Below, one piece after another: positions 26,995 through 56,164 of a stretch of 64,000 nt of DNA; within the stretch, counting starts at the first letter, position 1, and every line of letters starts with the position of its first letter. The translations under genes were made by a program, and so were the position numbers. Source of the DNA: Flectonema sp. DT1601 (taxonomy: Eukaryota); assembly GCA_964019425.1 (NCBI GenBank), contig OZ025796.1, positions 620,001 through 684,000 on the forward strand. Direction: 5' to 3'. The notes under the pieces were generated by a model. The model saw only the letters and a list, made by a program, of their open reading frames with translations, did not search any database and had not been told where the DNA came from.

Positions 26995-27017
26995 GATTCT
27001 TTTATAAAGAATCTTTT

Positions 27018-28478: not shown

Positions 28479-29272
28479 ATGAGAGACAACCTGAGGAGGT
28501 TAGTATCGGAGGCTATGAACCTCCTGAAGATGGTGGGAGATGATGGGATCCCCGAGTATGAGAAAGAGAAAAGAGTAGCGAATCTCCTGATGGAGGTTAT
28601 CCAGTTCGTGACGGGGTCGGAAGGTGGGAACCCTGAGATGAAAAGAAGAAGACCGGACACTCCCGAAGTGGGTGGTGGGACGGATGCGACCGCGACGGCA
28701 ACCGAAGCGACGGCCCCTACCGCAGGCAGCAATCAACCGACAACAGAGGCGTCTACAGCTTCTAATCAACAGACAACATCGGCACCTAAACAATCAACCT
28801 TTTCGTTTCCGCTGCCTGTACCATCATCAACATCGACTAAACAAACCACAAAGGGGAATGCTAAAGCAAGCTACCCGGAATGGCATGTACACGGCGCGTG
28901 GGCGGGCACTGTGTCTACAATCAACTACGACGTAGCAGCGAATGCTACCAACAATCTCGCATCGGGTCTTGTTTTAGTACGCTCTAAACAGGACTGGGAA
29001 GCTCTCCGTCAGACAAAGAAGAGTGGTCGATGGGCTGCAATCAGCAAAGTACCGCTAACCAAAAGCACGGTGCCTGTCGCCATACCGGTGATCAAAAAGG
29101 GTGGTGTCTGCGAAATCAGACGAGTCTTCTACACGCATATCTGTGGTGAAGATTTTTCCAAAGCCACATCCGAAATTCAACATCCGACACCCGACCCCGT
29201 CTTGTTTGTTCAGGATTGGGGCAAATCAAGTGAAAAAGATCTAACGATCAAAACAAAGGAACTGCTAAAAAA
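28479..29272 (+). pseudogene. LINE-C ORF1, N-terminal half (interrupted)
   Basis: Homologous to the minus-strand copy at ~1990-2732; breaks at ...KELLK. Confidence 0.85.
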
Positions 29273-29309
29273 CCAACGATTCTAAAGCTACAGTTTCTGT
29301 ACTTTATTG
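29271..29309 (+). other. Complete 39-nt spliced-leader exon fused to kinase 5' UTR
   Basis: AACCAACGATTCTAAAGCTACAGTTTCTGTACTTTATTG has the euglenozoan SL length and conserved 3' half; not followed by the GT intron of an SL RNA gene. Confidence 0.92.
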
Positions 29310-29342
29310 CCCCTCCCCCTCCCCCGCTCCACAGCTGACAAC

Positions 29343-30263
29343 ATGCCAAAGCGCATCGGCAAGTATGAATTGGGTAAGACCCTGGGAGCTGGAACATTCT
29401 CAAAGGTAAAAGAAGGATGTGATGTTGAGAATGGTACTAAGTACGCAGTCAAGATTGTTGACAAACAATTACTAACTAAGGGACACATGGAACAACAACT
29501 CAAGCGAGAGATCGCAATTATGAAATTACTCGATCACCGAAACGTATTAAAGATGGTTGACGTGCTACAGACTGGTAAGAATATTTATTTAATCCTTGAC
29601 CTGTTGACTGGAGGTGATCTCTTCGACAGATTAGAGCAGGCGAAGAGATTCGAAGAGGACGTTGCTCGCAAATACTTCCAGCAGCTTATCTCTGGACTCT
29701 ACTACCTCCACGCCCAAGGAATCGCTCACAGAGATTTAAAGCCGGAAAACCTTTTGCTTGATACTAACAACATTATTTTTATCGCTGATTTCGGTTTCTC
29801 TCGTTTACTGAATAACCAACAACTCCTTAATACTGTTTGTGGTACTCCTAACTACATGGCACCAGAAGTTTTAAAAGAAAAAGGATATGACGGTAAGAAA
29901 GCTGACATCTGGTCAGCTGGAGTAATCCTTTACGCGATGCTTGCGGGATACCTTCCTTTTGATGATCCAAATATGAACGTCCTCTGTGATAAGATTGAAG
30001 CAGGTGAGTACAGAATGAGTCGGAAGTTCAGTCCAAACGCTGCTGACTTCATTAAGAGAATGCTTACTGTTGATCCTGATAAACGGATAACACTAGAACA
30101 GATGATTGAGCATCCGTTCTTTGTACCTGACTTTGACAAAGAGTATTTTATTAAATGTTGTGGTAAGGCAGTTAACCCGAGCCAAGACCAAATTGACAGC
30201 GCCTGGTCAGTGTGCAAGGAAGACGAGAAAAACAGCCCAACCGCTAAGAAGATTCAGCGATGA
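29343..30263 (+). CDS. Ser/Thr protein kinase (CAMK-like, SNF1/CIPK type), intronless retrocopy with intact ORF
   Basis: GAGTFS, AVK, HRDLKPEN, DFG, CGTPNYMAPE, DIWSAG motifs; preceded by SL plus 33-nt UTR. Confidence 0.93.
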   Translation: MPKRIGKYELGKTLGAGTFSKVKEGCDVENGTKYAVKIVDKQLLTKGHMEQQLKREIAIMKLLDHRNVLKMVDVLQTGKNIYLILDLLTGGDLFDRLEQAKRFEEDVARKYFQQLISGLYYLHAQGIAHRDLKPENLLLDTNNIIFIADFGFSRLLNNQQLLNTVCGTPNYMAPEVLKEKGYDGKKADIWSAGVILYAMLAGYLPFDDPNMNVLCDKIEAGEYRMSRKFSPNAADFIKRMLTVDPDKRITLEQMIEHPFFVPDFDKEYFIKCCGKAVNPSQDQIDSAWSVCKEDEKNSPTAKKIQR

Positions 30264-30294
30264 GGGAAGAAATTCATCATTGTTTGTTCGTATT

Positions 30295-33200
30295 ATGTTG
30301 CCACGCAACGACACGGAGCTTACCAGCAGAATGGTAAAGGAACATCCCAATGGGACAGCTCCGGGGAGCTACGCGGAGGCTGGGCCTGGAGCACTCACGG
30401 TGTCGTACTCGGGGAGTGGACACGACGTGTTTGGCGAAGGGACAGCTCCAGGGAGCTGTGCGGAGGCTGGGCCTGGAGCATTCACGGTGTCGTACTCGGG
30501 GAGTGGACACAACGTGTTTGGCGAAGGGACAGCTCCGGTGAGCTATGCGGAGGCTGGGCCTGGAGCACTCACGGTGTCGCACTCGAGGAGTGGACATAAT
30601 GTGTTTGGCGAAGGGACAGCTCCGGGGAGCTACGCGGAGGCTGGGCCTGGAGCACTCACGGTGTCGTACTCGGGGAGTGGACACAAGGTGTTTGGCGAAG
30701 GGACAGCTCCGGTGAGCTATGCGGAGGCTGGGCCTGGAGCACTCACGGTGTCGCACTCGAGGAGTGGACATAGTGTGTTTGGCGAAGGGACAGCTCCGGG
30801 GAGCTACGCGGAGGCTGGGCCTGGAGCACTCACGGTGTCGTACTCGGGGAGTGGACACGACGTGTTTGGCGAAGGGACAGCTCCAGGGAGCTGTGCGGAG
30901 GCTGGGCCTGGAGCATTCACGGTGTCGTACTCGGGGAGTGGACACAACGTGTTTGGCGAAGGGACAGCTCCGGTGAGCTATGCGGAGGCTGGGCCTGGAG
31001 CACTCACGGTGTCGCACTCGAGGAGTGGACATAATGTGTTTGGCGAAGGGACAGCTCCGGGGAGCTACGCGGAGGCTGGGCCTGGAGCACTCACAGTGTC
31101 GTACTCGGGGAGTGGACACGACGTGTTTGGCGAAGGGACAGCTCCAGTGAGCTACGCGGAGGCTGGGCCTGGAGCATTCACGGTGTCGTACTCGGGGAGT
31201 GGACACAAGGTGTTTGGCGAAGGGACAGCTCCGGGGAGCTGTGCGGAGGCTGGGCCTGGAGCACTCACGGTGTTGTACTCGGGGGGTAGACACAAGGTGT
31301 TTGGCGAAGGGACAGCTCCGGGGAGCTGTGCGGAGGCTGGGCCTGGAGCACTCACGGTGTTGTACTCGGGGGGTAGACACGACGTGTTTGGCGAAGGGAC
31401 AGCTCCGGTGAGCTATGCGGAGGCTGGGCCCGGAGCATTCACGGTGTTGTACTCGGGGAGTAGACACAAGGTGTTTGGCGAAGGGACAGCTCCGGGGAGC
31501 TGTGCGGAGGCTGGGCCTGGAGCACTCACGGTGTCGTACTCGGGGAGTGGACACAACGTGTTTGGCGAAGGGACAGCTCCGGGGAGCTACGCGGAGGCTG
31601 GGCCTGGAGCACTCACAGTGTCGTACTCGGGGAGTGGACACAACGTGATTGGCGAAGGGGCGGCTCCGGTGGGCTGTGCGGAGGCTGGGCCTGGAGCACT
31701 CGCGTTGGTGCCGTACTCGAGGAGTAGACACAATGTGTTTGGCGAAGGGGCAGCCCCGAGGAGGTATGCGGAGACGGGGCCTAGAGAACCCACGCTCGTG
31801 TCGTACACGAGGAGGGGGCACAGCCAGTCGAAGACAAACCGCACACTAGGGGCAGGGAGTGAGACGGCATCAACGCGGGGGCCTGGGATGAACACGACAA
31901 TGGCACACGAACAGGAGTATACAAAGAGGTGGCGGGCCATGTTGGAATTAGAGATACTCAGGGATATGCCGGGTCTAGGGACACATATGGCAACAGGAAT
32001 ATTACCGTCTTTAGCATGTCAAAAACTGGAGCCCACGATATGGTTATTCCCTCAGCCAAAGCTAGTGGGTTGTGCGGGAACGAATGAGACCGAGAGGTAT
32101 CAGGAAGAAATCACGCAACAGGTGAGGGGGCCAAACCGGGCGAGCGACAGGTGGAGACTGAGTCCACCAGCGCGATGGCACAAGAAACAAGAGAAGAAGC
32201 GGGAAAAGGCCCGGAAAACGAAAAGTGGGGGACGAACAAAGGAAGAGAGAGCGCCGGAAGATGAACAGTCGACGTCAAAGCCGAGAAGCAGTTGCAAGCA
32301 GCAGCCCCACGAGATGAGAGGTGGGGGTGCGAGCTGCCCAGTGTGTGAGTGGTCTGGGACGGAGAATGGCCTGCTGGCACACATAGATGGGAAGCATAAA
32401 GGTCAATTGGGACAGGACCAGTGGGCTGACTGCGGCATGAAGGCGTGCGGACACTGCGGACGAGCAATGAAGGGGACGGCCAGTATGCACCCAAGGTGTA
32501 GGAAGTTGAGCAGCTCCAGAGAGGTGGAGGGGGAAGCAACGCCAAGCACGTCCATAGAACTACAGAGGGAGTTCCCGAGAGTCAGTGTAACCAAGACTAA
32601 GGGGGATGGGGACTGTATGTTCCGAGCAATCCTACTGGCGAAGGGAGAATGGAATCGGCGAGTGGGTGCGAGGGTGCTGCGGAAGAGACTCGCGGAATAC
32701 ATGAGAGGTGAAGAGAGGACGGACCAATGGTTCGTCAACGGACTGGCCAAGGAGGACTACGCTGTACGACTGGAGAACAAGGGATGGGGGGACAACGTAG
32801 CGCTGCAGGTTGCGGCGGACCAGATGGGAGTAGTGATCATAGTGTGGGAGGCGGGGAGACTCCTAAAGATGCTGCCCCTGAGAAGGACTGAGGACATCCC
32901 GCTGTGGATAGTGCTGGATAAAGAACACTACGAGGCAGTGCTCCAAGCGGACGCCGAAATGCTCAATCGGGTGGAGGAGAGAGCCGAGGCGGTGTATGTG
33001 CTGAAGCTCTCCGAACAAACGGCTGAAGAGGCTGCGGTGAGGATAGGCCTGGGGACGGGACCAAGCGCGGGACTGAGGGGGTCTGGGCCTTACTACTGCC
33101 CCAGGGGAGAATGCTCGCGATCACGCGCCCAGCGATTTGAGGGATATAAGAACTGGGGAGGACTATTAGGCCACTTGAACAAGGAGCACCTCCTGTCAGA

Positions 33201-36200
33201 TCGCCCTCTCACGGAGGCGGAGCAGCAGGCGATGGGGGTGCGACCATGCACGATGTGTGGGTGTCTGACGGGAAGCAGCACCGGGGTCCACCCGAGATGT
33301 AGAGAAGCCATGGCGCTAGATGGGGGGGAGGAAGAGGTTCAGAACGCCCCGTGGCCAGACGAAAAAGAGCTTGGAGAGCTGCCGTCGTGGGAGGAGATAG
33401 GGGCGGCACAGGTAGTGGTGCCAAAAAAGTTGGACGAGAGGCTGACGATGTTGTGGGCGAGAGCTCTCATGGCAACATTGCAACGGATAGCACAGCGGAA
33501 TGACCCGCGGGCATGGAAGCTGCTATTGATGCTCCCGAAAGCATGCCTGGGAACGCCGGCGGTGCGGAAGGATGAGAAGGGGACAGAGACGCATAGGGAG
33601 AGGCTGACGAGCAGGCTGGAAGGATGGCTGAGGGGAGAGTATGTAGCGATGTGGAGCACGAGGGCAAAGAGGAACAAAAGACGACGGGAGAAGGAAACGA
33701 CACAGGGAGAACGGTATGAGCGGTGCTGCGCCCTGAGCAGGAGAGGGAGGTACGCGCAGGCTAATAAATGCCTGGTGTCGAGCGGGCTAGCGCCGAACGC
33801 GCCGGAAGTCCTGGCGGCGATGCAGACCATCCACCCGAGTCCCATGCACGAGAAGATAGACCTGGAGGGGGTGAGAACGGGGAACACAGTAGTGTCGCCG
33901 GAGGAAGCACTAGCATCGCTGAAGACATTCCCGAAGGACACGGGGGCCGGACCGTCGGGATTAAGCGTGGAGCTCCTGAAGCAAGCGTGCGACACGGGAC
34001 TGCGAGGGTTGATGCCAACGCTCTGCACTACATTAGAGCTACTGGTAAGAGGGAAAGTACCTTATGAGGCGGCACCGGTGTTGGCAGGAGCTCGCCTGAT
34101 CGCGCTGAAGAAAGAGCCGACCGGGTATAGACCAATAGCAGTAGGGGAATCACTGCGGAGGTGGGCGTGGAAGATAGTGCTAGCAAAAATAAGGCCCAAG
34201 ATACCAAACCTCTTAAAGCCAGGAGGACAGCTGGGGGTGGCGGTACCCAGTGGGGTGGAGGCGGTGTACGCAATAGTACGGGACTACGCGAGGAGGAACA
34301 GGGGGGCCAACAAGGCAATCCTGACCATTGATTTTGAGAACGCTTTTAACTGTGTCTCGAGGGCGGTGTTCCTGCGTGAGCTGGCGTCCACGCTGCCGGA
34401 ACTGTTGCCTTTGGCATCGTGGTGTTACGAGAGACCGACGAGCCTCTTTTTTGAGGATACCACGATTCCGTCGAGGGAGGGGGCCCAACAGGGGGATCCG
34501 GCGGGGCCTCTCCTTTTCTCACTCGGGATAAAAAGCCTACTGGAGGGACTCAAGAAGATGGGACTGGATGGAAGCCTCTGGTTCTTAGACGATGGAGTGT
34601 TGATGGGAGGCGTAGACGAACTAGCGAAGGCGTACGACTACCTGGTTCAAAAGGCATCAAGCCTGGGGCTAAAGGTAAAGGAGGCGAAGTGCGTATTCGT
34701 ACCTCTGCGGGTGGGCCTGGAACCGAAGGGGGGCTTGGAGAAGGTGAAACAAGAGTCCGAGGGAAACTTCACCATTCTCAAGCTACCGGTAGGGAGTGGG
34801 AGCTACTGCAAGGAATACCTGCTGCAGTACGTGACGAAGCTGAAGAAAGTAAGCGAGTCACTGACGATGCTACCGGATCGGCACGTAGCGCTGACCCAGC
34901 TACGATACTGCCATTCGTATGGGAAGATGGTATACTTGATGAGGTCAATGTACCTGGAGGACCAGCGATCAGGTCTGGCAGATTTCGATGCGGTGGTGAG
35001 AAGCGTGTTGCGGGGTCTCGTGGGTGGGGATATGGATGAGCGGGCGCACTTACAGGCGGAGCTACCTTTGCGGGAAGGGGGGGTGGGCCTGCGAAACTGT
35101 GGGAGACACGCGGCGGCGGGCAGAGCAGCGTCGGCCACTGCGACGAGGAAACTGTGCGTGGAGCTGGACGCCCAATACCAAGTCGACCCTGAGGAGTGGA
35201 GTGGGGTGTGTAAAGCGCTGACGCTGGAGACCTCGGAGGAGTGCGACCTGGACCTCGATAAGGTAGTGCGACAGAGAGAGCTGTCAATGAAGATCGACGC
35301 CTCGCTGAAAACGAAGATGGTCAACGACCTGAAGGGGAGCGGAGACCGAGAAAGACTTGCACACTTCAGAGCGGTGTCCATGCCGAGGGCGAGTGCGTGG
35401 TTGGCGGAGGCAAGCGACACGGGAACCGTGATGCCGTCGCAAATTTTCCGGACCGCGATCAGGGCGCACTTAGGGCTGGAGGTCTTACAGGCGGGACAGC
35501 TATGCAAGAGGTGCAACGCTAAGCTAGACCCTCGGGGGGTGCACGCAGGGATGTGTAACCGGGGGGCAACGCCAACCATACGCCATAACCTAGTCAGGGA
35601 TTTCCTGGCGAAGCAGGCAAGGGTGACGGGGATGTCCGTGGAAATGGAGCCGCAACGAATCCTAGATGGAGGGAGGAAACCGGCCGACATCCTGGTAAGC
35701 GAGGCAGTGCCGGGAACGACACGAAACTGGACAGGAAGACCGGCGGCGTACGACGTGACGGTCATCGAGGTATGCTCGCAGACAAGTCTGTCCCGGGGAT
35801 CGCACTTGGATGCGAGGCGGGTCATCCAGGCGAAGGAGAGGGAAAAGGTGAAGAAATACGGGGAGGAGTGTAGCTCGAAGGGAATAGCTTTCGTTCCTCT
35901 AGTCTTCACGCGCGACGGGGCCATGAATGAGGCAGCTGCGGCCTTCATCAAGGCGATTTCTCTGAGGACACGGAGACCGGCAGAGGCGTGGAGGGCACTG
36001 TCGAAAGAGATATCAACAACGCTAGCGTATAGCTGGGCGAGAGCGGTCGAAGATAGGGGGGAGTTGCTGATGGGGGGCGACGGAGCACCTATCAGTACGG
36101 ATCTACCCCCGATATTCAAGGAGGATGAGTGGGAAGACGAGATACAAGACCTGGTCGACAAGATGGGGAGCATCGGGGAGGGGCCAGACGAATCGGGGCG

Positions 36201-39200
36201 GTTACTGTCGGAGGCCGACCGGAGTGTGGGAAGGACTACCAGACCGGACGCTGCGCCGGAGATTGGCCAAGCCGCAAGAGATAGCACACAGAAGGCAGGC
36301 AACCAGAGGGAGGTGCAAGCCCCGGAAAGCGGGACGAGGTCCACCCTGCAGGAGCCGAAGGAACTGGAGCAGACTCACGGAGGGGCAGGGGAGCCGGGGG
36401 AGGCACGAACGGAGGAACCGTCAACTGAGGAATCTGGAGTCGGAGGGAGGACGCCGGCGGAGGGACCAACTCCGGACCGAGGGAACGCAATCACGGAGCC
36501 TTCACGAGCTGAGGGACCGGGACCCACGACGAAAGAGACAGGACGGTTGCCGGGCGCCCCGGTGGTGAAGCTGGTAGTTTCGGAAGGCAAGCCAGGAAGT
36601 GTTCCAAGGTTCAAAGGACATGGCAGAGATGTGATGGCCCAGCTAGAGCGAGATATGGCGGACCTAGACATCACGAAGCGGCCGTTATTGTCCTACGAGG
36701 CGTCGGGAAAACAAGATGACAAGTGGGCCACATCGGATGTGAGGGGATTTGAGAACACGAGAGGGACGTGCTACGCCGCAGCAACAGTCTGCAGCCTAAT
36801 ATGGGCCACACCACTAATAGGGTTGATGAGAGAGAAAGAAACGGCGGATAAAACGTGCGTAGGGGGATGTCTCGCCTGTGTACTGTGGAAGATGTCTAAA
36901 GAAGACCACCCAAGACTGGACGGGTTAATGGAGGAGACACGAGTCACGATCCAGGACTTCACGGCGGACACGGTCAGGAAGGAGATAACAAGGTATTCTT
37001 TGGCAGGAGGTTCGCCATTGGCTTTCCTTAAACAGATCCTAAATAACCTGGCACTGAAGGAGTGCGCGGTGTGGGGGGGGACTCTGAGGAGCCTGTTCGA
37101 ATCCAGATTGAAAGCGACACACAGGTGTGTATGTGGGTTTGTGAGGCAGGAGGTGCAGCTGAGTTTCATGGTCTTGGACCCAAAGACCAAGCCGGAGACA
37201 GCAAAGATCATCCTCTTAGGAGGGCCGCTCGAAGAAGAGACGAAGAGTCCAACGATCTGCGAGAGGTGTAGATCGCCAAACAGAGACTGCACTGTGCAGT
37301 GGAGATTCGCCGAGATGCCGCCGATCCTGTTCGCGAAGGAGAGAGTGGAACAGACGACGAGGGCCGCCTTTCAGGTAGAGACTGAAAGCGGGCCACGCAG
37401 TTATGTTTTAACGGGGAGTGTATGTGGCAATGGGAGACATGCAATGACAATGGTAAGAACGCCGAGGAACCGATGGGCATGTGTGAGCGACGAACGGGTG
37501 CAGAGCAAAGAAGGACCAGGCACGGGGCCGCTTTATTGGGTGTATACGAGAATCGAAGGAACGGAGGGTCTGTTAAGTGAGAAGCTCCTCTCCATAGACC
37601 ACCGCATGCGGACAAGCCGAGCACTGAAGCCACGCCCAATGGACGATAAATCGGGACGAGCGAGGCGGTGGTACTTTGACCAAAAAACACAAGTAGCGAA
37701 GGAGGCGGTGGTAGAAAGGAGGGAAGAGCCAGTTCTGCATGTGGAAAAGCCGAGGGCAGAGCAACCACCATCCCCGTCGGAGCCGAAACCTTTGGAGCCA
37801 GCATCAAACGGAGACATTGCGAAACTGACGCAAGAGACGAAGGAAGAGCCACCAGTACAAACTAACCGCTCCAAAGGGGACGGTGGGCAGCAGGCGCTGC
37901 CGCCGCCCCAGCTGCTCAAGTCTGAGGCGCGGAGTCCAGAGCGGGCAGAAGGCTCAACAACGGAACCAATGCGAATGGACGGGAGCGACCAGACTAAAGA
38001 CGTCACCGAACCGTCGGCGGGGATAGGATTGCACGCAGGAGGGAATTACTCGGACACATCCCTGTCGCTATCGGAACCGCCGCCTGTGAAACCCCACGGA
38101 AATGTCGAGACTTTGGAGCCAGCATCAAACGGAGACATTGCGAAGCTGACGCAGGAGACGAAGGAAGCGCCACCAGTACAAACTAACCGCTCCGAAGGGG
38201 ACGGTGGGCAACAGGCGCCGCCGCCGCCCCAGCTGCTCAAGTCTGAGGCGCGGAGTCCAGAGCGGGCAGAAGGCTCAACAACGGAACCAATGCGAATGGA
38301 CGGGAGCGACCAGACGAAAGACGTCACCGAACCGTCGGCGGGGATAGGATCGCACGCAGGAGGGAATCACTCGGACACATCCCTGTCGCTATCGGAACCG
38401 CCGCCTGTGAAACCCCACGAAAATGTCGAGCGGATGCCACAGGGACTGAGTGCGGTGCCATTGACGCTGTCAAAGCAACCGGAGGACCAGGATAGACGAC
38501 AGACACCGCCGGCTCCCCAGCAGTCCGTATTAAAACTACAAGAAACAGGACAGGATTTGCTACAGGTCCCGGTGAAAGTAGCCGAGCGGTCGAAAGAACC
38601 GGAGGCGCCGCCTGCGGTAAAAGAAGAGTCGAACCTGCCGGCGAGGAACCTTTCACCACCGGTGTCTATTTCAACACCAAGCCAGGACGTGCGGACGCCT
38701 ACGCAGCCGTTGCGTGATCCCGAGCAGGGAGAACCGCATGCACTTGTGAAACCGACAGAGGGCGCACAGACGCAAGCGAATGGATTGGTTTCAGAAGGAG
38801 CAGCCCCACAGAAGAGCAGAAGGGAGCCGACAGAACCTAAGACGTCTAGGGAGCAAGGTCTAAAACTGGGCTTTTACGCAACAGGACCGACCACGTGGGA
38901 GACAGCACCGTGGGAAGGAGAGCAAGACCCAGAGGAGGCCCAACAAAAGAGGGAGCCACTGGTACCACAGGAAGCAAACGCTCGGGAGGAAGACCGCGAG
39001 GGATATGACGAACCGACAGCGCGTGGAACAGACGGAGGAGCTGATGTACAGATGGAGAACTATGAGAGCCAGGAAGGGGCGAACTCCCAGGAACTAATGG
39101 AGGAAGTTACAGGGGAGATTGCCGAAACGAGCGAGCCGCTAGCGTATGGAATGGATGAAGGGGGTGATATACTCATGGAGGACTGTGAACCGGAATCAAA

Positions 39201-45888: not shown

Positions 45889-45930
<42 letters not shown>

Positions 45931-46179
45931 CATCTATCTTCGGTCTACGAACGCTTTGAGTCGGCCAGCAGTCACAAACGGACATTGAAGGCGCGGATAA
46001 TTGTTGTTGCTGTGGAAACCTTGCTCTGCTGAAGAAGGAGTTGAAATTTTCCCCACCTGCATTCTGATTCGAGTTGTCTTCGAGAGTACTTTGCTTTGGT
46101 CAAAAAAAAGTTACTTATTCATCCAGCACATACGTCCTTCTCATCTTTTCTGGAGACTGGACCGCTGGTGAACGCGCAA

Positions 46180-46475
46180 ACAGAACAAATTTTTTCTTTT
46201 GTTCTTCATTAAAACTACACTGAGACACGGTCTTCCGCAATACATCGCACGAACAGAACATATCCTTTCTTGTTCTCGTTTAAACACCGCTTTAAGACAG
46301 CGAAAAGAGCATATCCTTTTTTTTGTTCTTGTTTAAACTCTGCTTTGATACACGGTCTTCCGCTAGTCAGCGCGCGAGAAGAACATATCTTTTCTTGTTC
46401 TCGTTTAAACTTTGCTTTTAAGACCTGCAAACAGAGCATATCTTTTTTTTTGTTCCTGTTAAAACTCTTTTTTAA
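46180..46475 (+). repeat. Five degenerate AGA(A/G)CA..TGTTC..AAAC hairpin-like repeats
   Basis: Motif recurs at ~46180, 46253, 46305, 46379 and 46431. Confidence 0.6.
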
Positions 46476-46634
46476 GACAAAGCGTTACGAATCAGCCTGC
46501 GGGAGAGGAGAAGGAAGAACTCTCTCACTAGCTTTGTTTGGTGCCCGTGGTGGTGACTACCATTCTGCGTCGGAACTGTACGGGGGTGACCGCATAGACA
46601 GAAGAGTTCGGAAAGCGGAGGATACGCGAGCCAG

Positions 46635-46687
<53 letters not shown>

Positions 46688-46798
46688 ACTCCACACACAC
46701 GTACAGGGCTAACAAGGAGAAGAGCAGGTAAGTCGATTGTCTTTTTTCGGGTTCCATACACAAATCATCCACAGCGAAGAGAACGGAAAAGGAAGAGT

Positions 46799-46844
<46 letters not shown>

Positions 46845-46847
46845 AGA

Positions 46848-49800
46848 ATGGAGAAAACAATGTTACTGTGTGGGTACGTGCTGCTGTGGGCACTACTAAG
46901 TGGAACGAGGGCGCAACAGACGTCCGGAGTGGGTAAGCAGAGGTTAGCCCCAGTGCCAGGCGGATGGCACACCCCTCTTTTCACAACGCTGGACAAAGGC
47001 CCACTGTTTTCATCGCGCATCAGCCGACGCGTAACACGCCCGATCCCCCCGCACCCATTTATAACCCCCAACAGCTCAAACAGCCCCAACAATACGGCAA
47101 GCGGACGCGCTTTCCAACATGGACGAGAGGGGGTGTGGGTCCCGCGGAGGGGAACGGAAACGGCCGGGAACCGGGTGAGGCGAGACCACCCAAAGCCACC
47201 TCCAGACAAGGGAGGAAGGGAGCTCCTGAAGAGGGCGTCCCCGAAAGTGGCGTCCAAGGCGGCAAGGCGGCTGGAAAGGAGGAGGAGGAAGCTGCTGAAG
47301 GAACGGCAGGAGAGGTGGGAGCGGTGGGCGGGAGAGTTGGAGAAGTTCCACGCCAGGCGAGAGAGGTTCCGCGCGGAGACAGAGAGGCCAAGGAAGAACA
47401 AGGCGGAGACACCGAAGAAGCGACGGGCAGGGCCCGAAAGGGACTGGACAAAGCCAGGAGGGCACAAGGCGGAGCCCAGACCATGGTATGCGAGGCCGTC
47501 AGACCTGGCAGGAGGAGGGCAAAGCAAGGAGAGGACGAAGTGCCCGGTGGTGGGGTGCAGCGTCTGGGTGAGGGGTGACCTAGAGTACCACTTCAAACAA
47601 CACCTGAAGGGAGTGGTACCGGGGGAGGTAACGGCCCAGATGGCATCCGACAGACTCGGAAAGCAGATCTGCAAGGCCTGCGGGGAGCTGAGTACCGGAT
47701 TGGTGCACCAGACAGTGAGGTGTCGGGAGATGTTGGACCTCAAGGGACGGCTGGGGGTAGCGACGGGACCCACGCCGGAACTGGCAAGCCTGAAGTGCGA
47801 GGGAGCAAAAGTATTCCGGGTGATTGGGGATGGGAATTGCCTGTTCAGGAGTGTGTGCCAACTCCTAGAGACGCCAGAGGGGTGGAAGGGCAGACATGGA
47901 GAGCTCCGCAGGAGAACGGCAGGATACCTGACCAAGAACAGGGAAAGGTTCGAGGTCTTCTTCCAGGACGCGGACGCATTCGGAGTATATGCGAGGGCGT
48001 TGGAAGAGGATGGATGCTGGGGCGATGCATTGGCCCTACAGGTCATGGCAGAGGACCTACAGTGCCGCTTCGTCGTCGTGGTGAGGACGGAAACGCTGGT
48101 GGTGGAAGGGCCATCGGACCCGAAGCGGACGCTGGTCTTGACCCTGCAAAACGGGTGCCACTACGACCCAGTGGAGGCATCCGAGGACTGCGTCGCGCGG
48201 CTGCTACAGAGCGCCCGGAGGTTGGAGTTAGTGTCGCCAGGCCCGCTGTCGCAAGCAGCAGGAGGCGAGCCGGCAGTGCTGCAGACAGCCTCCCGACAGG
48301 CCCAGCTGCACGAGTGCCCCCAAGCGGAGTGCCCGAAACACAAGGGAGGCTTCGAGGAGTGGGCGGAGCTCCTAAGACACGTGGACGAGCACGCATTCAG
48401 TGGCAACCCGCTGACGCATGGACAGTTGGCGAGGCTAGGCCTCCGGGAATGTCCGGTGTGCTGTGGGATCATCGGGCAGGACCAGCCGATGCATCCGGGG
48501 TGCAGTGAGAAACTGCAGAAGGTCCAACTGGGGGACGTGTACACGGCGTTCCGGAAGCGGGTGCTGGAGAGCCAGAGCTTCCCCTCTTTGGAGGAAATAG
48601 CCAGCAGGAGGAGGCCGATAGCGAAGAAGCTGCCGGTGTCCCTGTTGCATCATCTGGGGCGAGCACTCAAGCTGTCGCTCGACCTAGTCGTGGAGCGGAA
48701 CGATGAGTGGGCATGGAAGCTGCTCTTGATGCTCCCGACATGTACACTGCGGAGGATACGGAGGGGGGGTAGGAGGTTGTCGACCAGCGATCTGACAGGG
48801 GCGGTCGACGACCTGCAAGCATGGATTCGGGGGGAATTTGAGGGACTGTGGAAAGCGGCGGCCCCCCGCAAGGCGACGGGAAGGCCAGCAGTGAAAGAGG
48901 CGGGGCAAAAAGGAAGGAACGACAGGGCCACGTCGCTAGCGAGGGAGGGTTGCCTGTCACAGGCGATCTCGGCCCTAGACGCGCCGCCGCCAGCAGAACG
49001 AACCGAGAAGGTGCTGGAGCAGATGCGCACCCTACACCCGAGGGCGAGCGGACCCCCATCGGCCACGGCAGGGCAGGAGGTGCAGATAGCAGAGGTGGAG
49101 CTGCTAGCATGCCTACGCTCCTTCCACAGGGGGTCGAGTGGAGGGCCTTCGGGCCTCGCGCCGCAACACCTGAAGGACGTGGTGGAGCGGGGTGAGGTGC
49201 CGGGGCTGGTAGCCTCGATCACGGAGGTGGTGAGGATTCTGGCGAACGGGAGGGCGCCGCGGGAAGTAGCGCCGCTGCTGGCGGGGGCGAACCTGACGGC
49301 GCTGGAGAAAGAAGGGAAGCCGGGGGAGCACCGGCCAGTCGCGGTGGGGGAAACATGGAGGCGGCTGGTGGCGAAGATCCTGTGCGGGGCATATAGGTCC
49401 CAGGCGAGGAGCTCGTTGCTAGAAGTGAGACAGCTGGGAGTAGCGGTGTCGGGGGGAGTGGAGGCGGCGGTGCACACCCTGCATGAGTTCCGCGCGGAGC
49501 ACGCGCTCTCGTCACAGAAAGTGTTCGTGAAGATAGACTTCTCGAACGCCTTCAACTGCGTGAAGAGGGGGGCGTTCCTGGATTCGACGAGGGATACCCT
49601 GCTGGAGAGCTGGGTCAGCTGGTGTTACGGAGCGCCGACGTGGTTGCTGTTTGGGGACGAGAGGCTGAGCTCGGAGGAGGGCGCTCAGCAGGGGGATCCG
49701 TTGGGTCCCTTGCTGTTCTCGCTGGCAATCAAGCCGGCGCTGCAGAAGGTGTTGGAGGCGAAGCCGGAGTTGGCGTGCTTCTACCTGGACGATGGGCTGG

Positions 49801-52800
49801 TGGCGGGCACCCTGGAACAGGTAGACAAGGCCCTCCAAATCCTGCAGAAGGAGACGGCGGAGCTGGGGCTGACGCTGAGGCCGGACAAGTGCCAGACGCA
49901 CGTGCTCGACTCAGCCCAGAACACCCTGCCCTTGGGGTGGGGGTTGGAAGGGATGAGACCCCCACTGTACAACGGGGACTTCCTGGGGGCACCGTTCGGG
50001 ACGGAGGAACACTGCCAGGAGTTCGTCGACAGGAAGGTGGCGCAGCTGGAGAAGAAAGCGGAGCTGCTAGCTGACCTGCAGGACCGGCAGGTGGCCATGG
50101 TGCTCCTAAGGCAATGCATGGGCTTCTGCAAGGTGACCCACCTGATGCGATGCTGCACGCATGGGAAAATGGACACCTCGATGCGGAAGGTGGACGAGCT
50201 GATGAGGTCCACGGCGAGCCGAGTGTTGGGCCTGACACTGGAGGGGCCAAAGTGGATGCAAGCACAACTGCCGACCCGGATGGGGGGATTGGGGCTGCGG
50301 TCATGTGCAGAGCACAGGGGAGCAGCACTATTGGGATCCCTGGAATTAGTCCAAGGGGTGAGCAAGTCACTGTGGGAGGGGTTCAAGGGGGTGCTGATGC
50401 CAGCACTGAAGAAGGGGTTGAACCTCGCCCTCCCGGAGGAGCTAAGGATAGAAGAAGACGGGCCGGGGCCGAACCCCCAGAGGCTGTCCTCGGCGAAACT
50501 GGACCAGGTCAAGAGAGACTGCCTGCTGGCGGGGGCGAATGACCCGCGCGATAAAGGGAGGCTGCTCTCCCTGCGCATGGATAAGGCGAGCGCATGGCTG
50601 CAACAAGCAGATGAAGAGTGCGCGATGGACCCAGAGACGTTCAGGATCGCATGTGGGATGCGATTGGGCGCAGCGCTGTTCGCGGAAGGGGCAGTATGCA
50701 GGATATGCTCAGGCCCACAGGATAGGCAGGGATACCATGCCTCAATCTGTATCAAAAACGGCCACGTGCACCAGCGACACGAGAGGGTGAAGGAGGAGTT
50801 CATCTCCATCTTTAAGCAGGCGGGATTGCCGCTGCTGAGAGAACCCAGCCACCTACTGGGACCCAACAAGCAGAGACCGGGGGACTGGTACTGCCAAGAG
50901 GGGCTGAGGGAGGGGAGAGGCAGAGCCTTCGACATCACAGTGGTAAACCCGGGGAAGATTAAATTGTATAAAACCCCGGGGCAAGCCGCGAGAGAAGCAG
51001 AGTCCCTGAAAGGGAACAAGTACGCGGAGCAGTGCACGAAACACGGGATTAATTTCTCGACAATTGCGCTGGAAGCGTACGGAGGGATGGGACGGGAAGC
51101 AGTGGGGACCCTGAAGAAGTTGGTGCAGATCTGCGCAACGAACTCGACGGTGCCACACCGGGAGATCGCGGGGGAGATGGCGAGGAGGATCTCGACATCG
51201 GTGGTAGTGGCGACGGCGGAAGCACTGAGAGCGAGGGAGGCGTCGGTGGCGATGGACTCAGTGAACCCATTGCCAAGGACGAAACCGCCGCCCGAGATGA
51301 CGGAGAAGCCGACATCACAAGAGAGAGAACCAAGACCGAGAGCGGAAACGGAAGAGATCCAGCAGCCGGAAGTAATGCGACAGTCGGCAGGACCGCCCCC
51401 GACGATGAGAGGTTTGCCGAACATCGGGAACTCCTGCTACCTCAACGCGTCCGTACAGTGCCTGCTGAAGGGCACGGCACTGACACAAGTGCTGACGGGG
51501 AAGGAGGAAGTGGGGATGTCGGGCCTCCTGAGTGGAGTGGTCAAAGGGAGTGGGGAGTGCCTGGAGAAGCTGTCCGAGATGTTCGACCCGCTACAAGACA
51601 GGCGGCAGGGGGAGGTAGTAGGAACCCTGACGTCCATAGTAGACGCCCTGTTGGAGGAGAAGAAAGAGGTGTGCGAACCGTTGTTCTCGGCAGTACAGCT
51701 GAAACAGCTGGTCTGCACGGGATGTGCGGACGCCTCCGGATCGACGGATGAGTTGACGCTGATCCCACTGTGTGGCCGTACACCACAAGTGAGGCTTCAG
51801 CCGACGAAGGAGAGAGTCGAGCGGTCCTGCGAGAAGCTGTGCGGCAGCAATGAGGCCACGCTGGAAGAGAGTTTCGCCTCGCTCCCAAGCTCCTTGATCT
51901 TCCAGAGAGACAAGCAGGACACGCAAGGGTCCTTGGGATGGGAAGAGCGCTTCCAGGTGCAGGTCGGGGAGAGGGTGATGACGTACCAGCAAACGGGAGC
52001 GATCGCACACCTCGGGAGTGACAACGCGGGGCATTACGTGTCATACACGTGGGACGGAGTAGGCTGGCAGAAGCAAGACGACAAGGCAATAAGCCAAGTG
52101 TCGACAGAGGAGATCCACGGGACGAAACCAGTAGTAGTGGTCTACTCGAGGGTGGAGGGATCGACCCAAGAGGACGTCGGGGTGCCGGTGAGATGGATTC
52201 CGGTGGCGAACAAGGACCGGATGGAGGTACGCGAGGCACCGCCGTCGGAGGAGGACACCGCGGGGTACACGTCCAGGGAAGAGGCGGAGTGTGTCCTCCG
52301 GACGCGAGTAGTAGGGGGGCAGACGCAGCGCAAGCTGCTCTTACTGGTATCGAGCGTCTGGAACGCGGAGATGGAGAAGCTGGGGGCGGCAGCATGCCTG
52401 ATACACATGGGAACGCTCGACAGGAGGTTCACGTGGTCGGGCTGCCTACCGACATGGGACGAAGCGACTGCGGAGTACGTGGCAGCGCTGCTAGGGCTCA
52501 ACGCGATCAGGGAGAGATCGCAACTGCTGGGGGGTGAGACACAGATCGAGGTGGTCACACCGCAGCAGGGGTGGGGAGCCGAGCAGCAGGAGGCGCTGAA
52601 GTTGGTAGCGCTCCCGTCGGTGATAGAACACCAGGTGACGGAAAGCTCACGAGGGGTGGAGAACCTGGCCCTCTGGGAAGCGGAATCGGCGGCATGGGAC
52701 GAGCCGGTGGAACTCTCGGAGGACGGGCTCGACTACTTGGTGATCGAGCTGGAGATGAATCTGGGGCTGTCCCAATTGAGGGGAAAGGCGGTGGAACCGG

Positions 52801-55370
52801 ATGAATCCCAGTCGCTCCCAGGAGGGTCGACGGCATCAGGCGAAGACAGACCACGAGCCGAAGCGCCAGCCCAGGTGGAAGCGCAGACGACGGAAGCACA
52901 AGGAGCGGAAGCAGTAGGGCTGAGAGACGAGCCAGCACAGGAAGTGGGACAACCCGAGGAAAAAGAGCCCCCATCCCCCGACCCCCCGTCGAAGGAGGAG
53001 AAGCTGTATGCGGTGGCGGTGGGATGGAAACCGGGAGTGTATGCATCGTGGGAGGAGGCGAAGGCACAGACGGAAGGGTGCCCGAATGCGACACACCAGA
53101 GTTTCTCCTCCAGGAAGGAGGCGGACAGGTTCGTAGAGAGGTGGCAGCCGGAGACCAGGGAACCGACCCGGGCCACGGAGGGTGTCAGCCCACGTAAGTG
53201 GTACGCAGTGGCGAGGGGCAGGGCGGTAGGCCTGTTCCAATGCTGGAACGAGGCGAACTCGATGGTGTCAGGCTACGCGGCGGCGAGACACAAGAGTTTC
53301 GCAAGCAAGGGGGAGGCGGAGGGATACCTCCAAACCCACCTGCTGGGGGAGGTGGTTGGCGAAGTAGGGACGAGGTACACCTTGGTGTACGCATGCGAGG
53401 AAGACCCGGTAACGGGCCGTCTGGGGGCGGCGGCGAGCTGGTTGGACACACACCGTTTCGAGGTGTTGGGCACATGGTCAGCTGGCCTGCCAGCGGGAGA
53501 CACACACTGGGGGCGATACTTCGCAGCCCTGGTGGGGCTGGTAGCGGCCAAGGCGTGTGGAGGCCTCGTCCCAGCGGAGGCATCCCTGCTGCTGCGAGGA
53601 AGCACGACACACTGGTCGACGGACCAGAGAGAGGTGCTGGAGGAGGCGGAGTTGATGGGGAGGCGTACGACGCTGGTGGAGATGCCAGAGAGGATGAGAA
53701 CACACGCGACGGAGGAGGCTGAAAAAGCGGCGAAGGAGGGCTCGACCTCAGTGACGGAAGCCGTGATGAAGGTTTTCACAGAGGGGGCAAAGAACTGCCT
53801 GGGACACGGGACACAGACGGGTCCCTTCACGGTGCGGTGGGAGGGAAGACAACTGCGTCTGGAACCCCAGTACACAGAAGAGGGGACGGGATCGTCAGGC
53901 GGCCGAGAGTCGGTGGAAGGAGAAGACGCGAGGGTAGAGGGCCGAGACGAGCAGAGCCCGGTCCCAACCCCGAAGGGGGCCGTGCAAAGGGTAGAGGCGG
54001 GAGTCCTGGAGTTGAGCTCGGAAGGGTCGGAGGGAGATGACGATAGATCATCCTCCCCAGCGACAGGGCAGGACGAAGGGAACGGTTCCATGTCGGGAGG
54101 CTCCTTGGGGAGTCCAGGGACGTCGGACATGGAAGTAGAAGAACAGACGGACGAAAGGGACCAGTCAGTAGACCCGTCGGCAGCAGAGACCTCAGGCGAA
54201 AACCATCACCTGGCCGAGGACCTGCAAGCCGAGAAGGGGGACGAGCTGGACGAGACGTCCCACCACTCAGGAGAGCCACCGTCGTCAGACGGCATGGACG
54301 GAGTGGAGGGGTTGGAGGACCTGGAAGACTCACAGTCGGAGACGGAAGTCGACGGAGAAAATGTGACGGAAGGGTCAGTAGTCCAGTACGTCGAGGAGAC
54401 GTCAGAGGACGTGGTCCAGGTGGCAGAGTCGGACACAGAGGAGGAGGGATCGTCAGACTCCCAAATGACCATGACGGTCGATGAACAGGAATGGGAAGAG
54501 GGAGCGGCGCCCGAGGGGAACGCAGGTCAGATGGCCTGGATGCTGGGACTACACCCAGAAGGGGGGAACGCGGAAACACGACGGGAGGGCCAATCGGAGC
54601 CCCTTTCAAAGCTGGTGAACTCAGGCGAAACAAAACCAATGGCCGAGAGATCCAGTTTGGGGGCGAAGATGGGACCACGCGCAGTGGGTAGTGACGGGAG
54701 CGGGGAAGACGCAGAGAGATCGCCGGGCACGGTGTCGACACCGAGCACGAGAGGGAGGACGAAGTACAGAAAGGGAATGGAGGAGGAGAGGGAGGAGTGT
54801 GTGTCGCCGAAGACAAATACGGGAAGGGGACGCACGAGAGGCCGGAAGGCAAAGACGGGGGCAAAGGGGGCCGGAAAGGAGGACCCAAGTCCGCAGGTGT
54901 TGCAGGCGGAAATGGGAGAGTCCACCCCGAGCTCAGGTGAACGGCAGGCGAGGAGGAGGTACAGGAAGGGAGAAGAGAGGGAGAGGATAGAGGTTCTCTC
55001 CCCAGACCCGAGCAGGAAAGCGAAGAGGAAGAGACGCAAGCAGAAGGAACCGGAGCCAGTGGAGGGCACCACGAGGGAACAGGCGCCGCGGAGTTACAAC
55101 AGGAAACCCACACTGCGTCGGGTAGGTAAGGGAGACACACCCGACACAATGGGGTACGCACACGGGCCCCCGGGCTCCCTGACCTCGTTCACGGACGCGG
55201 GCGTACGCCCGGAGCCGGCGGAGCGAGACGGACAAGGTGTGGCAGGAGTAGAGTTGGTCACAAGGTCGTCGTCACAGAGTGAGAAAAGCACCCAAGGAGA
55301 GATGAGGGAGAGAGAAGGGGATCCAACGCGAAGGGTCCTGGACTTCTCGTCGAAAGGGGGAAGGCGCTAG
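46848..55370 (+). CDS. RLE element 2 polyprotein (~2840 aa): ZnF - OTU - ZnF - RT - RLE - USP - RNaseH-like - 2x RNase H1 N-terminal - RNaseH-like - acidic tail
   Basis: GDGNCLFRS..WG..HYD; HRPVAVGE, DFSNAFN, GAQQGDP, YLDD; RHE..RPGD..FDITV..ESLKGNKY; GLPNIGNSCYLNA..GHY..QDD; YAVAVGWKPGVYASW and WYAVARGRAVGLFQCW. 3' UTR and poly(A) run to 56157. Confidence 0.9.
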   Translation: MEKTMLLCGYVLLWALLSGTRAQQTSGVGKQRLAPVPGGWHTPLFTTLDKGPLFSSRISRRVTRPIPPHPFITPNSSNSPNNTASGRAFQHGREGVWVPRRGTETAGNRVRRDHPKPPPDKGGRELLKRASPKVASKAARRLERRRRKLLKERQERWERWAGELEKFHARRERFRAETERPRKNKAETPKKRRAGPERDWTKPGGHKAEPRPWYARPSDLAGGGQSKERTKCPVVGCSVWVRGDLEYHFKQHLKGVVPGEVTAQMASDRLGKQICKACGELSTGLVHQTVRCREMLDLKGRLGVATGPTPELASLKCEGAKVFRVIGDGNCLFRSVCQLLETPEGWKGRHGELRRRTAGYLTKNRERFEVFFQDADAFGVYARALEEDGCWGDALALQVMAEDLQCRFVVVVRTETLVVEGPSDPKRTLVLTLQNGCHYDPVEASEDCVARLLQSARRLELVSPGPLSQAAGGEPAVLQTASRQAQLHECPQAECPKHKGGFEEWAELLRHVDEHAFSGNPLTHGQLARLGLRECPVCCGIIGQDQPMHPGCSEKLQKVQLGDVYTAFRKRVLESQSFPSLEEIASRRRPIAKKLPVSLLHHLGRALKLSLDLVVERNDEWAWKLLLMLPTCTLRRIRRGGRRLSTSDLTGAVDDLQAWIRGEFEGLWKAAAPRKATGRPAVKEAGQKGRNDRATSLAREGCLSQAISALDAPPPAERTEKVLEQMRTLHPRASGPPSATAGQEVQIAEVELLACLRSFHRGSSGGPSGLAPQHLKDVVERGEVPGLVASITEVVRILANGRAPREVAPLLAGANLTALEKEGKPGEHRPVAVGETWRRLVAKILCGAYRSQARSSLLEVRQLGVAVSGGVEAAVHTLHEFRAEHALSSQKVFVKIDFSNAFNCVKRGAFLDSTRDTLLESWVSWCYGAPTWLLFGDERLSSEEGAQQGDPLGPLLFSLAIKPALQKVLEAKPELACFYLDDGLVAGTLEQVDKALQILQKETAELGLTLRPDKCQTHVLDSAQNTLPLGWGLEGMRPPLYNGDFLGAPFGTEEHCQEFVDRKVAQLEKKAELLADLQDRQVAMVLLRQCMGFCKVTHLMRCCTHGKMDTSMRKVDELMRSTASRVLGLTLEGPKWMQAQLPTRMGGLGLRSCAEHRGAALLGSLELVQGVSKSLWEGFKGVLMPALKKGLNLALPEELRIEEDGPGPNPQRLSSAKLDQVKRDCLLAGANDPRDKGRLLSLRMDKASAWLQQADEECAMDPETFRIACGMRLGAALFAEGAVCRICSGPQDRQGYHASICIKNGHVHQRHERVKEEFISIFKQAGLPLLREPSHLLGPNKQRPGDWYCQEGLREGRGRAFDITVVNPGKIKLYKTPGQAAREAESLKGNKYAEQCTKHGINFSTIALEAYGGMGREAVGTLKKLVQICATNSTVPHREIAGEMARRISTSVVVATAEALRAREASVAMDSVNPLPRTKPPPEMTEKPTSQEREPRPRAETEEIQQPEVMRQSAGPPPTMRGLPNIGNSCYLNASVQCLLKGTALTQVLTGKEEVGMSGLLSGVVKGSGECLEKLSEMFDPLQDRRQGEVVGTLTSIVDALLEEKKEVCEPLFSAVQLKQLVCTGCADASGSTDELTLIPLCGRTPQVRLQPTKERVERSCEKLCGSNEATLEESFASLPSSLIFQRDKQDTQGSLGWEERFQVQVGERVMTYQQTGAIAHLGSDNAGHYVSYTWDGVGWQKQDDKAISQVSTEEIHGTKPVVVVYSRVEGSTQEDVGVPVRWIPVANKDRMEVREAPPSEEDTAGYTSREEAECVLRTRVVGGQTQRKLLLLVSSVWNAEMEKLGAAACLIHMGTLDRRFTWSGCLPTWDEATAEYVAALLGLNAIRERSQLLGGETQIEVVTPQQGWGAEQQEALKLVALPSVIEHQVTESSRGVENLALWEAESAAWDEPVELSEDGLDYLVIELEMNLGLSQLRGKAVEPDESQSLPGGSTASGEDRPRAEAPAQVEAQTTEAQGAEAVGLRDEPAQEVGQPEEKEPPSPDPPSKEEKLYAVAVGWKPGVYASWEEAKAQTEGCPNATHQSFSSRKEADRFVERWQPETREPTRATEGVSPRKWYAVARGRAVGLFQCWNEANSMVSGYAAARHKSFASKGEAEGYLQTHLLGEVVGEVGTRYTLVYACEEDPVTGRLGAAASWLDTHRFEVLGTWSAGLPAGDTHWGRYFAALVGLVAAKACGGLVPAEASLLLRGSTTHWSTDQREVLEEAELMGRRTTLVEMPERMRTHATEEAEKAAKEGSTSVTEAVMKVFTEGAKNCLGHGTQTGPFTVRWEGRQLRLEPQYTEEGTGSSGGRESVEGEDARVEGRDEQSPVPTPKGAVQRVEAGVLELSSEGSEGDDDRSSSPATGQDEGNGSMSGGSLGSPGTSDMEVEEQTDERDQSVDPSAAETSGENHHLAEDLQAEKGDELDETSHHSGEPPSSDGMDGVEGLEDLEDSQSETEVDGENVTEGSVVQYVEETSEDVVQVAESDTEEEGSSDSQMTMTVDEQEWEEGAAPEGNAGQMAWMLGLHPEGGNAETRREGQSEPLSKLVNSGETKPMAERSSLGAKMGPRAVGSDGSGEDAERSPGTVSTPSTRGRTKYRKGMEEEREECVSPKTNTGRGRTRGRKAKTGAKGAGKEDPSPQVLQAEMGESTPSSGERQARRRYRKGEERERIEVLSPDPSRKAKRKRRKQKEPEPVEGTTREQAPRSYNRKPTLRRVGKGDTPDTMGYAHGPPGSLTSFTDAGVRPEPAERDGQGVAGVELVTRSSSQSEKSTQGEMREREGDPTRRVLDFSSKGGRR

Positions 55371-56099
55371 GGACTCCACGAAGGAGGTCTCAAGAGTCGA
55401 GGAAAAGACAGAGCCAAGACCCCAGAGCCAACCCAAAACACATGGTAGAGGACGAGGGAGAACAAGAGCGGGAGCGAGGTTAGAAACGTGACCAAAGCCC
55501 CCGCGAAGCAGGAGACACAACCTGCAACCAGACCCCCCCAAAGAAAAAAAACCCCGGTCAACGAGGCAAACTCGGACCAAAACATGCTTTTCACCCCCCC
55601 CAGGAAACACCGACCAGTGGAGCCAAAGGCCGCACACATATTATAAAAATCAAAGGCCGCCCCCCAACCCAAGAAAAGGATGAAAAACTTTCAAGCGAAA
55701 AAACTTGACGTCCGTACGCCCCAGAGATCAAAGGACGGACGACTCACACCCCCTTCTTTCGCCCCATTTTATTAACTGGTACAGCGACAAATGTAAAGCT
55801 GGGTAGACGACGAATTATCTTTTGTGCACAGAGACAAGGGGTCCATGAGAACAAAGGATCAAGAGAAGAAGTGCACATTCCCCATCCCAAACCCAGAAAC
55901 ATGAGAACTCATTAAATTGAAGGGCCATGTCTTTTCAAGTCGAAAAATGCTTAAATGCTAAAGAAGACTGTCGTCCCCAGCTCGCGGGTTTTCCCTGTCG
56001 CTGTATGTCGAGACAACGATCAGAGTCAGTAGAAAGATTTTACAAATTTGTTGTAAAATGAGAAAGGACAAAGAAAGTAGTTTCCATTTTATCTTCCCG

Positions 56100-56159
<60 letters not shown>

Positions 56160-56164
56160 AAAAA

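Follow-up and report, generated by a model that had tools for sequence, protein, structure and literature searches.

A leader-marked 27-kb composite of retrotransposed RNAs, including a captured kinase mRNA, inside a LINE-C ORF1 of Flectonema sp. DT1601

Introduction

In vivo template switching by non-LTR reverse transcriptases (RTs) has so far been known mostly from short mammalian and fungal chimeras, complemented by work on the R2 RT in vitro. In dinoflagellates, a spliced leader found in DNA reportedly marks retrogenes as mRNA-derived copies. The chimeras WEIRD/Mg-SINE/MGL of Magnaporthe and B2/U6/L1 of mouse, as described in the accessible part of PMC2104539, join different RNAs on the same strand, with a 5′-truncated retroelement 3′ of a cellular RNA and one outer target-site duplication (TSD), and double switches under one TSD are given there for both organisms. 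Human L1 chimeras with U6, other RNAs and mRNA fragments likewise carry cellular RNA 5′ of a truncated element and share the problem of telling sequential from simultaneous insertion, which was settled in that case by multi-species alignments (bioRxiv 10.1101/2025.02.02.635956, in the portion available). The R2 RT makes serial end-to-end template jumps in vitro, copying several templates into one cDNA, in experiments with a modified enzyme and short templates (PMC8594491, excerpted text). The trypanosomatid CRE clade (SLACS, CZAR, CRE1, CRE2), according to the available sections of PMC12278014, targets spliced leader (SL) RNA genes and has a single ORF with RT followed by a restriction-like endonuclease (RLE), zinc-finger-like motifs, internal repeats and poly(A).

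Here we describe an insert in a 64,000-nt stretch of contig OZ025796.1 of Flectonema sp. DT1601 (hereafter the window) that is a much larger, leader-marked version of the known chimeric retrogenes. Compared with the chimeras in the accessible part of PMC2104539 it measures ~27 kb instead of ~6 kb, contains two long autonomous-type elements and a full spliced protein-coding mRNA, involves an RLE-type RT (that of human L1 in the bioRxiv text being of APE type), has leaders marking two RNA 5′ ends, and lies at a target base that was independently reused. Unlike the dinoflagellate retrogenes, its leader is complete and the gene copy stands within a multi-element insert. R2 jumping provides a model for the tail-to-leader junction, although here capped 13-kb RNAs in vivo would take the place of the short templates of PMC8594491 (excerpted text). 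In the article texts searched, such an insert was not found described for diplonemids; the supplements of PMC10161547 may cover diplonemid elements.

Results and Discussion

The insert and its target site

An initial annotation had claimed a ~27-kb insertion with a single short TSD in LINE-C ORF1, made of parts that all lie on one strand, whose removal restores a reading frame collinear with an uninterrupted copy. All of this held, with one TSD visible. The insert measures 26.9 kb and is flanked by the 7-bp TSD TAAAAAA at both edges (Table 1); its parts follow each other on the plus strand as leader and kinase, RLE-1 with A10, leader and 462-bp array, and RLE-2 with A58; and the flanks are collinear with a minus-strand copy at 1491-2804. 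Other loci of the genome were compared as predicted proteins with their contigs, and intact ORF1 proteins were found to cross the site, reading ELLKKKKINAAPF (P0276, 549 aa, on 5 contigs). P0276 agrees with the left flank as far as the break and with 286/286 residues on the right, and 8 of the 13 members of the LINE-C ORF1 cluster cross the site uninterrupted (12 contig placements). At the level of sequence, the insertion is real, and the composite was reverse-transcribed from at least three RNAs.

Both halves of the split ORF1 show 100% identity to uninterrupted copies at other loci of the genome and the ORF2 behind them is intact, so the insertion is very young. The ages of the parts are similar, with no differences in the kinase exons or in ORF1, 6-7 residue differences in 3406 between the RLE-1 of the insert and three other copies, and 8-10 in ~2840 for RLE-2.

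In a protein look-up, the left-hand ORFs (LINE-B1, LINE-B2, ORF1 left half, kinase) were on record on a 291,344-bp contig, where the right-hand ORFs were not found; ORF2 turned up on a 430,786-bp contig and nowhere else, and RLE-2 and the right half of ORF1, with two starts tried for each, returned no record. Different start calls could explain the missing right-hand records, and so could a split or a second haplotype. The ORF2 at 57171-60926 (1251 aa) is identical to P0288 on the 430,786-bp contig, perhaps a sister copy or else the second allele, and both have a 2-residue gap that is absent from the other 14 ORF2 proteins listed.

Table 1. Parts of the insert and of its host element, from 5′ to 3′, in window coordinates
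Feature	Position	Strand	Basis
Host LINE-C 5′ end: 3′ remnant of spliced leader and three slipped 8-bp repeats	28381-28421	+	sequence; like the remnant at the minus copy, 2790-2808
LINE-C ORF1, left half	28479-29272	+	matches P0276 up to the break
Left TSD TAAAAAA, final AA shared with the first two bases of the leader	29266-29272	+	
SL1, complete 39-nt spliced leader, no GT after it	29271-29309	+	
Kinase retrocopy: 33-nt 5′ UTR, CDS 29343-30263 (306 aa), 88 nt of 3′ UTR, no poly(A)	29310-30351	+	Pfam Pkinase; parent exon ORFs
RLE-1, 5′-truncated CRE-like non-LTR element; ORF ends at 42126, then 3′ UTR and A10	30352-42540	+	
RLE-1 87-bp repeats	30352-31822	+	
A10 after the end of RLE-1 sequence at 42530	42531-42540	+	
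SL2, complete spliced leader	42539-42577	+	
462-bp tandem array, 6.4 identical units	42578-45535	+	
Non-coding stretch: A23, A39, A50, A40; 125-bp repeats	45536-46841	+	
tRNA-like SINE inside the non-coding stretch	near 45560-45655	minus	
47-nt intron-like piece GTAAGT..CACAG	46728-46774	+	
RLE-2, CRE-like; complete ORF 46848-55370 (2840 aa), 3′ UTR, A58 (56100-56157)	46842-56157	+	
Right TSD TAAAAAA	56158-56164	+	
Rest of LINE-C: ORF1 right half to 57020, 3′ UTR and A22	56165-61424	+	
LINE-C ORF2, intact, APE endonuclease and RT	57171-60926	+	
Separate RLE-1 3′ fragment ending in A10, no leader after it	27018-27521	+	

The kinase is a captured host mRNA

The kinase of the insert is CIPK/SNF1-like. 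It shares 98% identity with a transcript of Flectonema neradi and 80% with Diplonema papillatum, which places the host of this eukaryotic, retroelement-crowded window among the diplonemids. Its 306 aa equal the length of the closest transcript, which rules out truncation or an in-frame fusion. Two parent ORFs (P0014 and P0242) were located on a 651,521-bp contig, the copy being on that of 291,344 bp. By protein comparison they are identical to kinase residues 49-217, 218-253 and 254-295, and read into extra Val-initial sequence after K217, Q253 and E295; the first of these stretches in the parent stays in frame for 25 residues, the last of which is Gln, as expected if a GT..AG intron were read through. 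This pattern indicates that the parent gene has three introns, all of them absent from the copy in the window. Furthermore, SL1 is fused to the kinase 5′ UTR, so that the 5′ end of a mature mRNA stands in the DNA. The intron loss, the leader and the parent at another locus bear out the claim that a host mRNA was reverse-transcribed and captured; of the usual marks of a processed retrocopy, a poly(A) tail of its own is absent.

SL1 and SL2 match a euglenozoan leader variant which we take to be the diplonemid one. Their 39-nt sequence agrees at 37/39 bases with the leader tabulated in PMC3795323.

RLE-1 is truncated at its junction with the kinase

Full RLE-1 copies (P0453, 4614 aa, and P0455, 4730 aa) extend beyond the N-terminal end of the copy in the insert, by 690 and 806 residues. 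None of the first 440 residues of P0453 was found in the 64-kb window, and the residues just upstream of the 87-bp repeats of the insert are absent from both full copies, which together indicate that RLE-1 was cut within these repeats. An ATG at 30295 was considered as the start of RLE-1 itself and discarded, being absent from the full copies. At 30352 the kinase 3′ UTR runs straight into RLE-1 without an A-run between them. The kinase, RLE-1 and A10 make up a unit as in chimeric retrogenes, different RNAs fused in one orientation with a truncated, tailed retroelement as the 3′ part. A template switch from inside the RLE-1 RNA onto the kinase 3′ UTR is well supported as the origin of this fusion. 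The template jumping proposed initially is retained here in the form of a switch, which is the best reading of this junction; for this junction the proposal of an end-to-end jump across whole RNAs fails, since RLE-1 lacks at least 690 N-terminal codons and the kinase its poly(A).

At the other end of the element, a second copy (27018-27521) ends in the same bases followed by A10, which confirms the 3′ end of RLE-1; the TSD geometry of this fragment is unreadable, with a fold-back at its 5′ junction. Homopolymers in the RLE-1 3′ UTR vary between copies (A11 vs A18, T8 vs T13).

RLE-1 and RLE-2 belong to two CRE-like families

Both elements have an RT (Pfam RVT_1) followed by a CCHC knuckle and a PD..D..K nuclease motif in one ORF, and poly(A), as do CRE elements. 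OTU, RT, RLE, USP and RNase H N-terminal domains were found in both, with the OTU before the RT and the USP and two RNase H N-terminal domains after the nuclease. By eye, the full ORFs of both families open with a hydrophobic, signal-peptide-like stretch. A scan of 13 relatives returned one weak OTU match and neither USP nor RNase H N-terminal matches, and we found no paper that joins OTU, non-LTR retrotransposon, restriction-like endonuclease and CRE in the literature searched.

RLE-1 and RLE-2 are 30% identical to each other over 1372 columns. Their clusters hold 26 and 35 members, those of RLE-1 having been collected by exact sequence look-up, and the copies are 99.4-100% identical, which on sequence grounds makes both active families; the RLE-2 of the insert is 99.7% identical to a full copy (P0264). 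Among representative proteins at 50% identity no close relative of RLE-1 was found, the top-scoring matches being 34-38% identical. Relatives in Diplonema papillatum bear the SLACS label, and an RT tree of 25 rows, built without a trypanosomatid reference, placed RLE-1 and RLE-2 with these proteins and apart from APE LINEs (99/99), its inner forks being open and the bootstrap unsettled. With the trypanosomatid CRE elements in the available sections of PMC12278014 they share the single ORF, the RT followed by an RLE, zinc-finger-like motifs, internal repeats and poly(A); unlike these, both lie outside the SL RNA gene and have ORFs of 2840 and 4614-4730 aa with the additional OTU, USP and RNase H N-terminal domains. 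Where the trypanosomatid members occupy a fixed position of the SL RNA gene, the insert studied here and the RLE-1 at a second locus (P0280) both sit in an A-run of LINE-C ORF1.

The second block, from SL2 to RLE-2

The part from SL2 to the end of RLE-2 (block B, 42539-56157, ~13.6 kb) may represent one leader-to-tail RNA or several. SL2 is joined exactly where an acceptor-like AG sits in the later units of the array, each full 462-bp unit carrying a donor-like GTATGT and an acceptor-like TCACAG, and the 6.4 units show no differences. One idea is that the array may be the 5′ region of RLE-2 itself, supplying spare acceptors of which one would be removed per trans-splicing cycle; recent DNA amplification or repeated copying by RT could also produce it. 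The 47-nt intron-like pattern further downstream also arises in 429/20000 shuffles.

Between the array and RLE-2 lie A-runs of 23, 39, 50 and 40 nt, the longest A/T run outside the insert being 27. Such long runs suit fresh tails, but internal runs of the RLE-1 3′ UTR also vary between copies. A search of Rfam gave no match in 45000-47000 at E up to 1, and only two tRNAs in the whole window; neither the array nor the pieces between the A-runs can thus be put down to a ribozyme or a known small RNA. Folding of six pieces was unremarkable in all six (z from -0.84 to +2.38).

The middle junction and the reuse of the target base

The junction in the middle of the insert consists of the RLE-1 end, ten A and then the leader. 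A 43-bp exact direct repeat (A6 and leader, at 29267 and 42535) flanks the kinase and RLE-1, and is a by-product of two leaders standing after A-runs. The initial annotation had seen no internal TSDs, and we also found no other convincing one among the 12 junction windows compared; this absence proves little, the middle junction being an A-run at which an A-only TSD (42531-42540) would be invisible. One TSD encloses the whole composite, within which a hidden A-only one may exist. No T precedes the A-run at 42531, which excludes renewed cleavage of the left site in an identical 7-bp geometry. A scan of metagenomes for A6 followed by the leader gave no matches.

The same target base is used at a second locus. 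Another LINE-C ORF1 (P0280, with a 5-residue deletion, on a 583,711-bp contig) ends in ELLK-N, at the base of the break in our insert, and continues into a foreign tail, CLSGLQ*, which corresponds to a plus-strand frame inside RLE-1 at 40500-40520. A chance match of this tail is expected 3e-4 times in the six frames of the window, and 0/20000 random peptides matched. In addition, an RLE-1 C-terminal ORF identical to that of the insert from 40900 onward (P0447) lies on a contig that is also 583,711 bp long. Read from these translations, P0280 is an independent LINE-C copy with a truncated RLE-1 at the identical base and on the same strand, giving a reuse rate of 1/13 other contig placements spanning the site. 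This makes a second hit at the insert site plausible. Together with the A-run at the middle junction, it also means that the single visible TSD does not discriminate between one event and two.

P0285 also begins at this A-run, without a poly-Lys head, and is ambiguous. In two other RLE copies (P0270, P0460) Lys is joined to Lys across the 5′ junction, which none of the three LINE-B heads shows, a weak hint that both RLE families may use A-run targets. Leader-derived peptides were sought in 107 family proteins: the real matches were P0275, from this locus, and P0283, and three further hits were a chance 5-mer inside RLE-1.

One insertion or two

On balance we lean towards two insertions stacked at a single preferred T-A6 site, each of them probably the work of its 3′ element. 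In the first block (block A), RLE-1 would have primed at the T-A6 site and copied 12.2 kb of its own RNA, and inside the 87-bp repeats its RT would likely have switched to the 3′ UTR of the spliced kinase mRNA and run to the leader. Block B would be the copy, made as far as the 5′ end, of a 13.6-kb transcript that is capped by a leader and terminates in RLE-2. The block arriving second would have landed in the A-run left by the first, either its tail or the left target copy, with a second duplication consisting purely of A and concealed within the A10 (42531-42540), a scheme that leaves the block order either way. The alternative of a single priming event we regard as possible and distinctly less probable: an RT would prime on the poly(A) of block B, copy 13.6 kb to the leader, jump to the 3′ end of the RLE-1 RNA, copy 12.2 kb, switch to the kinase mRNA and join the target through the shared AA. 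The product, one 26.9-kb cDNA made in vivo by a CRE-type RT that jumps between RNAs from a single nick, is to us a tentative proposition at the same level; its templates may number as many as six, should the runs A39, A50 and A40 be tails. Both weightings are judgements and not computed values.

Two insertions are favoured by P0280, which indicates that RLE-1 can be the 5′-most part at this base in an independent copy, and by the fact that each block ends in its own RT-bearing, tailed element. This independent strike came from RLE-1, which is not the 3′-most element of the insert as one run would have it; yet RLE-2 may prefer A-runs as well, and the case for RLE-1 as the enzyme that cut here is weaker for it. 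The Lys-to-Lys junctions of P0270 and P0460 are what A-run targets would give and point weakly in the same direction. Between 9 and 27.5 kb of the window, elements of different families follow one another head to tail behind A-tails, and in P0283 a leader remnant and ORF1 are joined to a LINE-C tail, although template jumps would account for the stacks and for P0283 equally well. Against two insertions stand the one visible TSD, the similar youth of the parts, as one event predicts, and the missing T before the A-run at 42531, which demands an A-only duplication. A single run is further supported by a middle junction that passes exactly from tail to complete leader, by a template switch that is already needed inside the insert, and by internal A-runs that are the longest in the window, though the variable homopolymers of the RLE-1 3′ UTR show that long internal runs need not be tails. 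Precedents for it are the serial end-to-end jumps of the R2 RT in vitro (PMC8594491, excerpted text) and, from Magnaporthe and mouse, double switches enclosed by a single TSD (PMC2104539, accessible part). The jump would however have to land on a second retroelement RNA and not on an abundant mRNA, and the antisense SINE and intron-like pieces before RLE-2 look like one read-through transcript. Complete ORFs are a minority in both RLE families (2/15 listed of 26 RLE-1 members, 2/15 listed of 35 RLE-2 members), so that an unbroken copying run of 27 kb is demanding.

The template switch at 30352 would be unnecessary if kinase and RLE-1 had been one RNA before copying, through an RLE-1 in the 3′ UTR of the parent gene and read-through, or through ligation or splicing of the RNAs. 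RNA ligation has reportedly been seen for U6/L1, which lends this some precedent. Polycistronic transcription with trans-splicing in Euglenozoa would also make read-through chimeras easy (PMC10161547, in its available part). We nevertheless consider a pre-joined RNA improbable, since 0/15 listed RLE-1 members (of 26) lie on the 651,521-bp contig of the parent and an RNA without the RLE-1 N-terminus would require mobilisation in trans. Slightly less credence still goes to the idea that the locus reflects either leader-targeted insertion as in SLACS and CZAR, with the 43-bp repeat as TSD, or an assembly chimera. The repeat does flank the kinase and RLE-1 exactly, and trypanosomatid CRE elements use SL RNA genes as targets (PMC12278014, available sections), but RLE-1 occurs without a leader at 27521 and at the P0280 locus, the GT that an SL RNA gene has after its leader is missing behind both SL1 and SL2, and trans-splicing of each RNA explains each leader; specific targeting of leaders was rejected on the leaderless copies and the missing GT. 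An assembly chimera would agree with the right-hand ORFs not being found on the contig of the left-hand ones and with the contigs of one sequencing run, which cover none of the junctions, but an artefact would not yield a TSD and flanks that match an intact ORF1 at 100%.

Whether two stacked insertions, as we favour, or one run made the insert, spliced leaders mark RNA 5′ ends in DNA, and in vivo template switches of non-LTR RTs become countable in this genome. The intact, leader-bearing kinase ORF moved by an RLE-type element represents a route to new diplonemid gene copies. If there were two insertions, a single TSD is unsafe evidence of one event at A-run hotspots. If there was one run, a 27-kb multi-template cDNA bears on the cargo limits of RLE enzymes for gene insertion, and diplonemid leaders and tails in DNA are a readable record of serial end-to-end jumps.

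Neighbouring retroelements in the window

LINE-C copies start with a 3′ remnant of the leader (28381-28421, 2790-2831 and P0283), in two cases directly behind another LINE-C-type tail, indicating that LINE-C RNA is trans-spliced and forms head-to-tail dimers. The plus-strand stretch 9014-27521 is a head-to-tail stack of LINE-B1 with A18, LINE-B2 with A20, a 120-bp SINE-like piece with A23, two LINE-D and the RLE-1 fragment with A10, with fold-back inversions at two junctions (23560-23581 and 26990-27018). Two identical tRNA-Gly(TCC) genes lie on the minus strand at 8902-8973 and 28243-28314, a retroelement array starting just upstream of each (13 bp and 67 bp), which may reflect targeting upstream of tRNA genes. 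On the minus strand, 1267-1490 is a mosaic of a 39-bp piece of RLE-2 3′ UTR, a LINE-B piece and the end of the LINE-C ORF1 copy, a pattern expected from template switching between the RNAs of elements, and the head of P0293 is similarly mosaic. A long minus-strand ORF at 61991-64000 shows RT-like and RNase H-like motifs by eye and is possibly of DIRS/TATE type. Finally, a MITE-like element with inverted ends occupies 27602-28092, and a relative of it is present in the contigs of a sequencing run.
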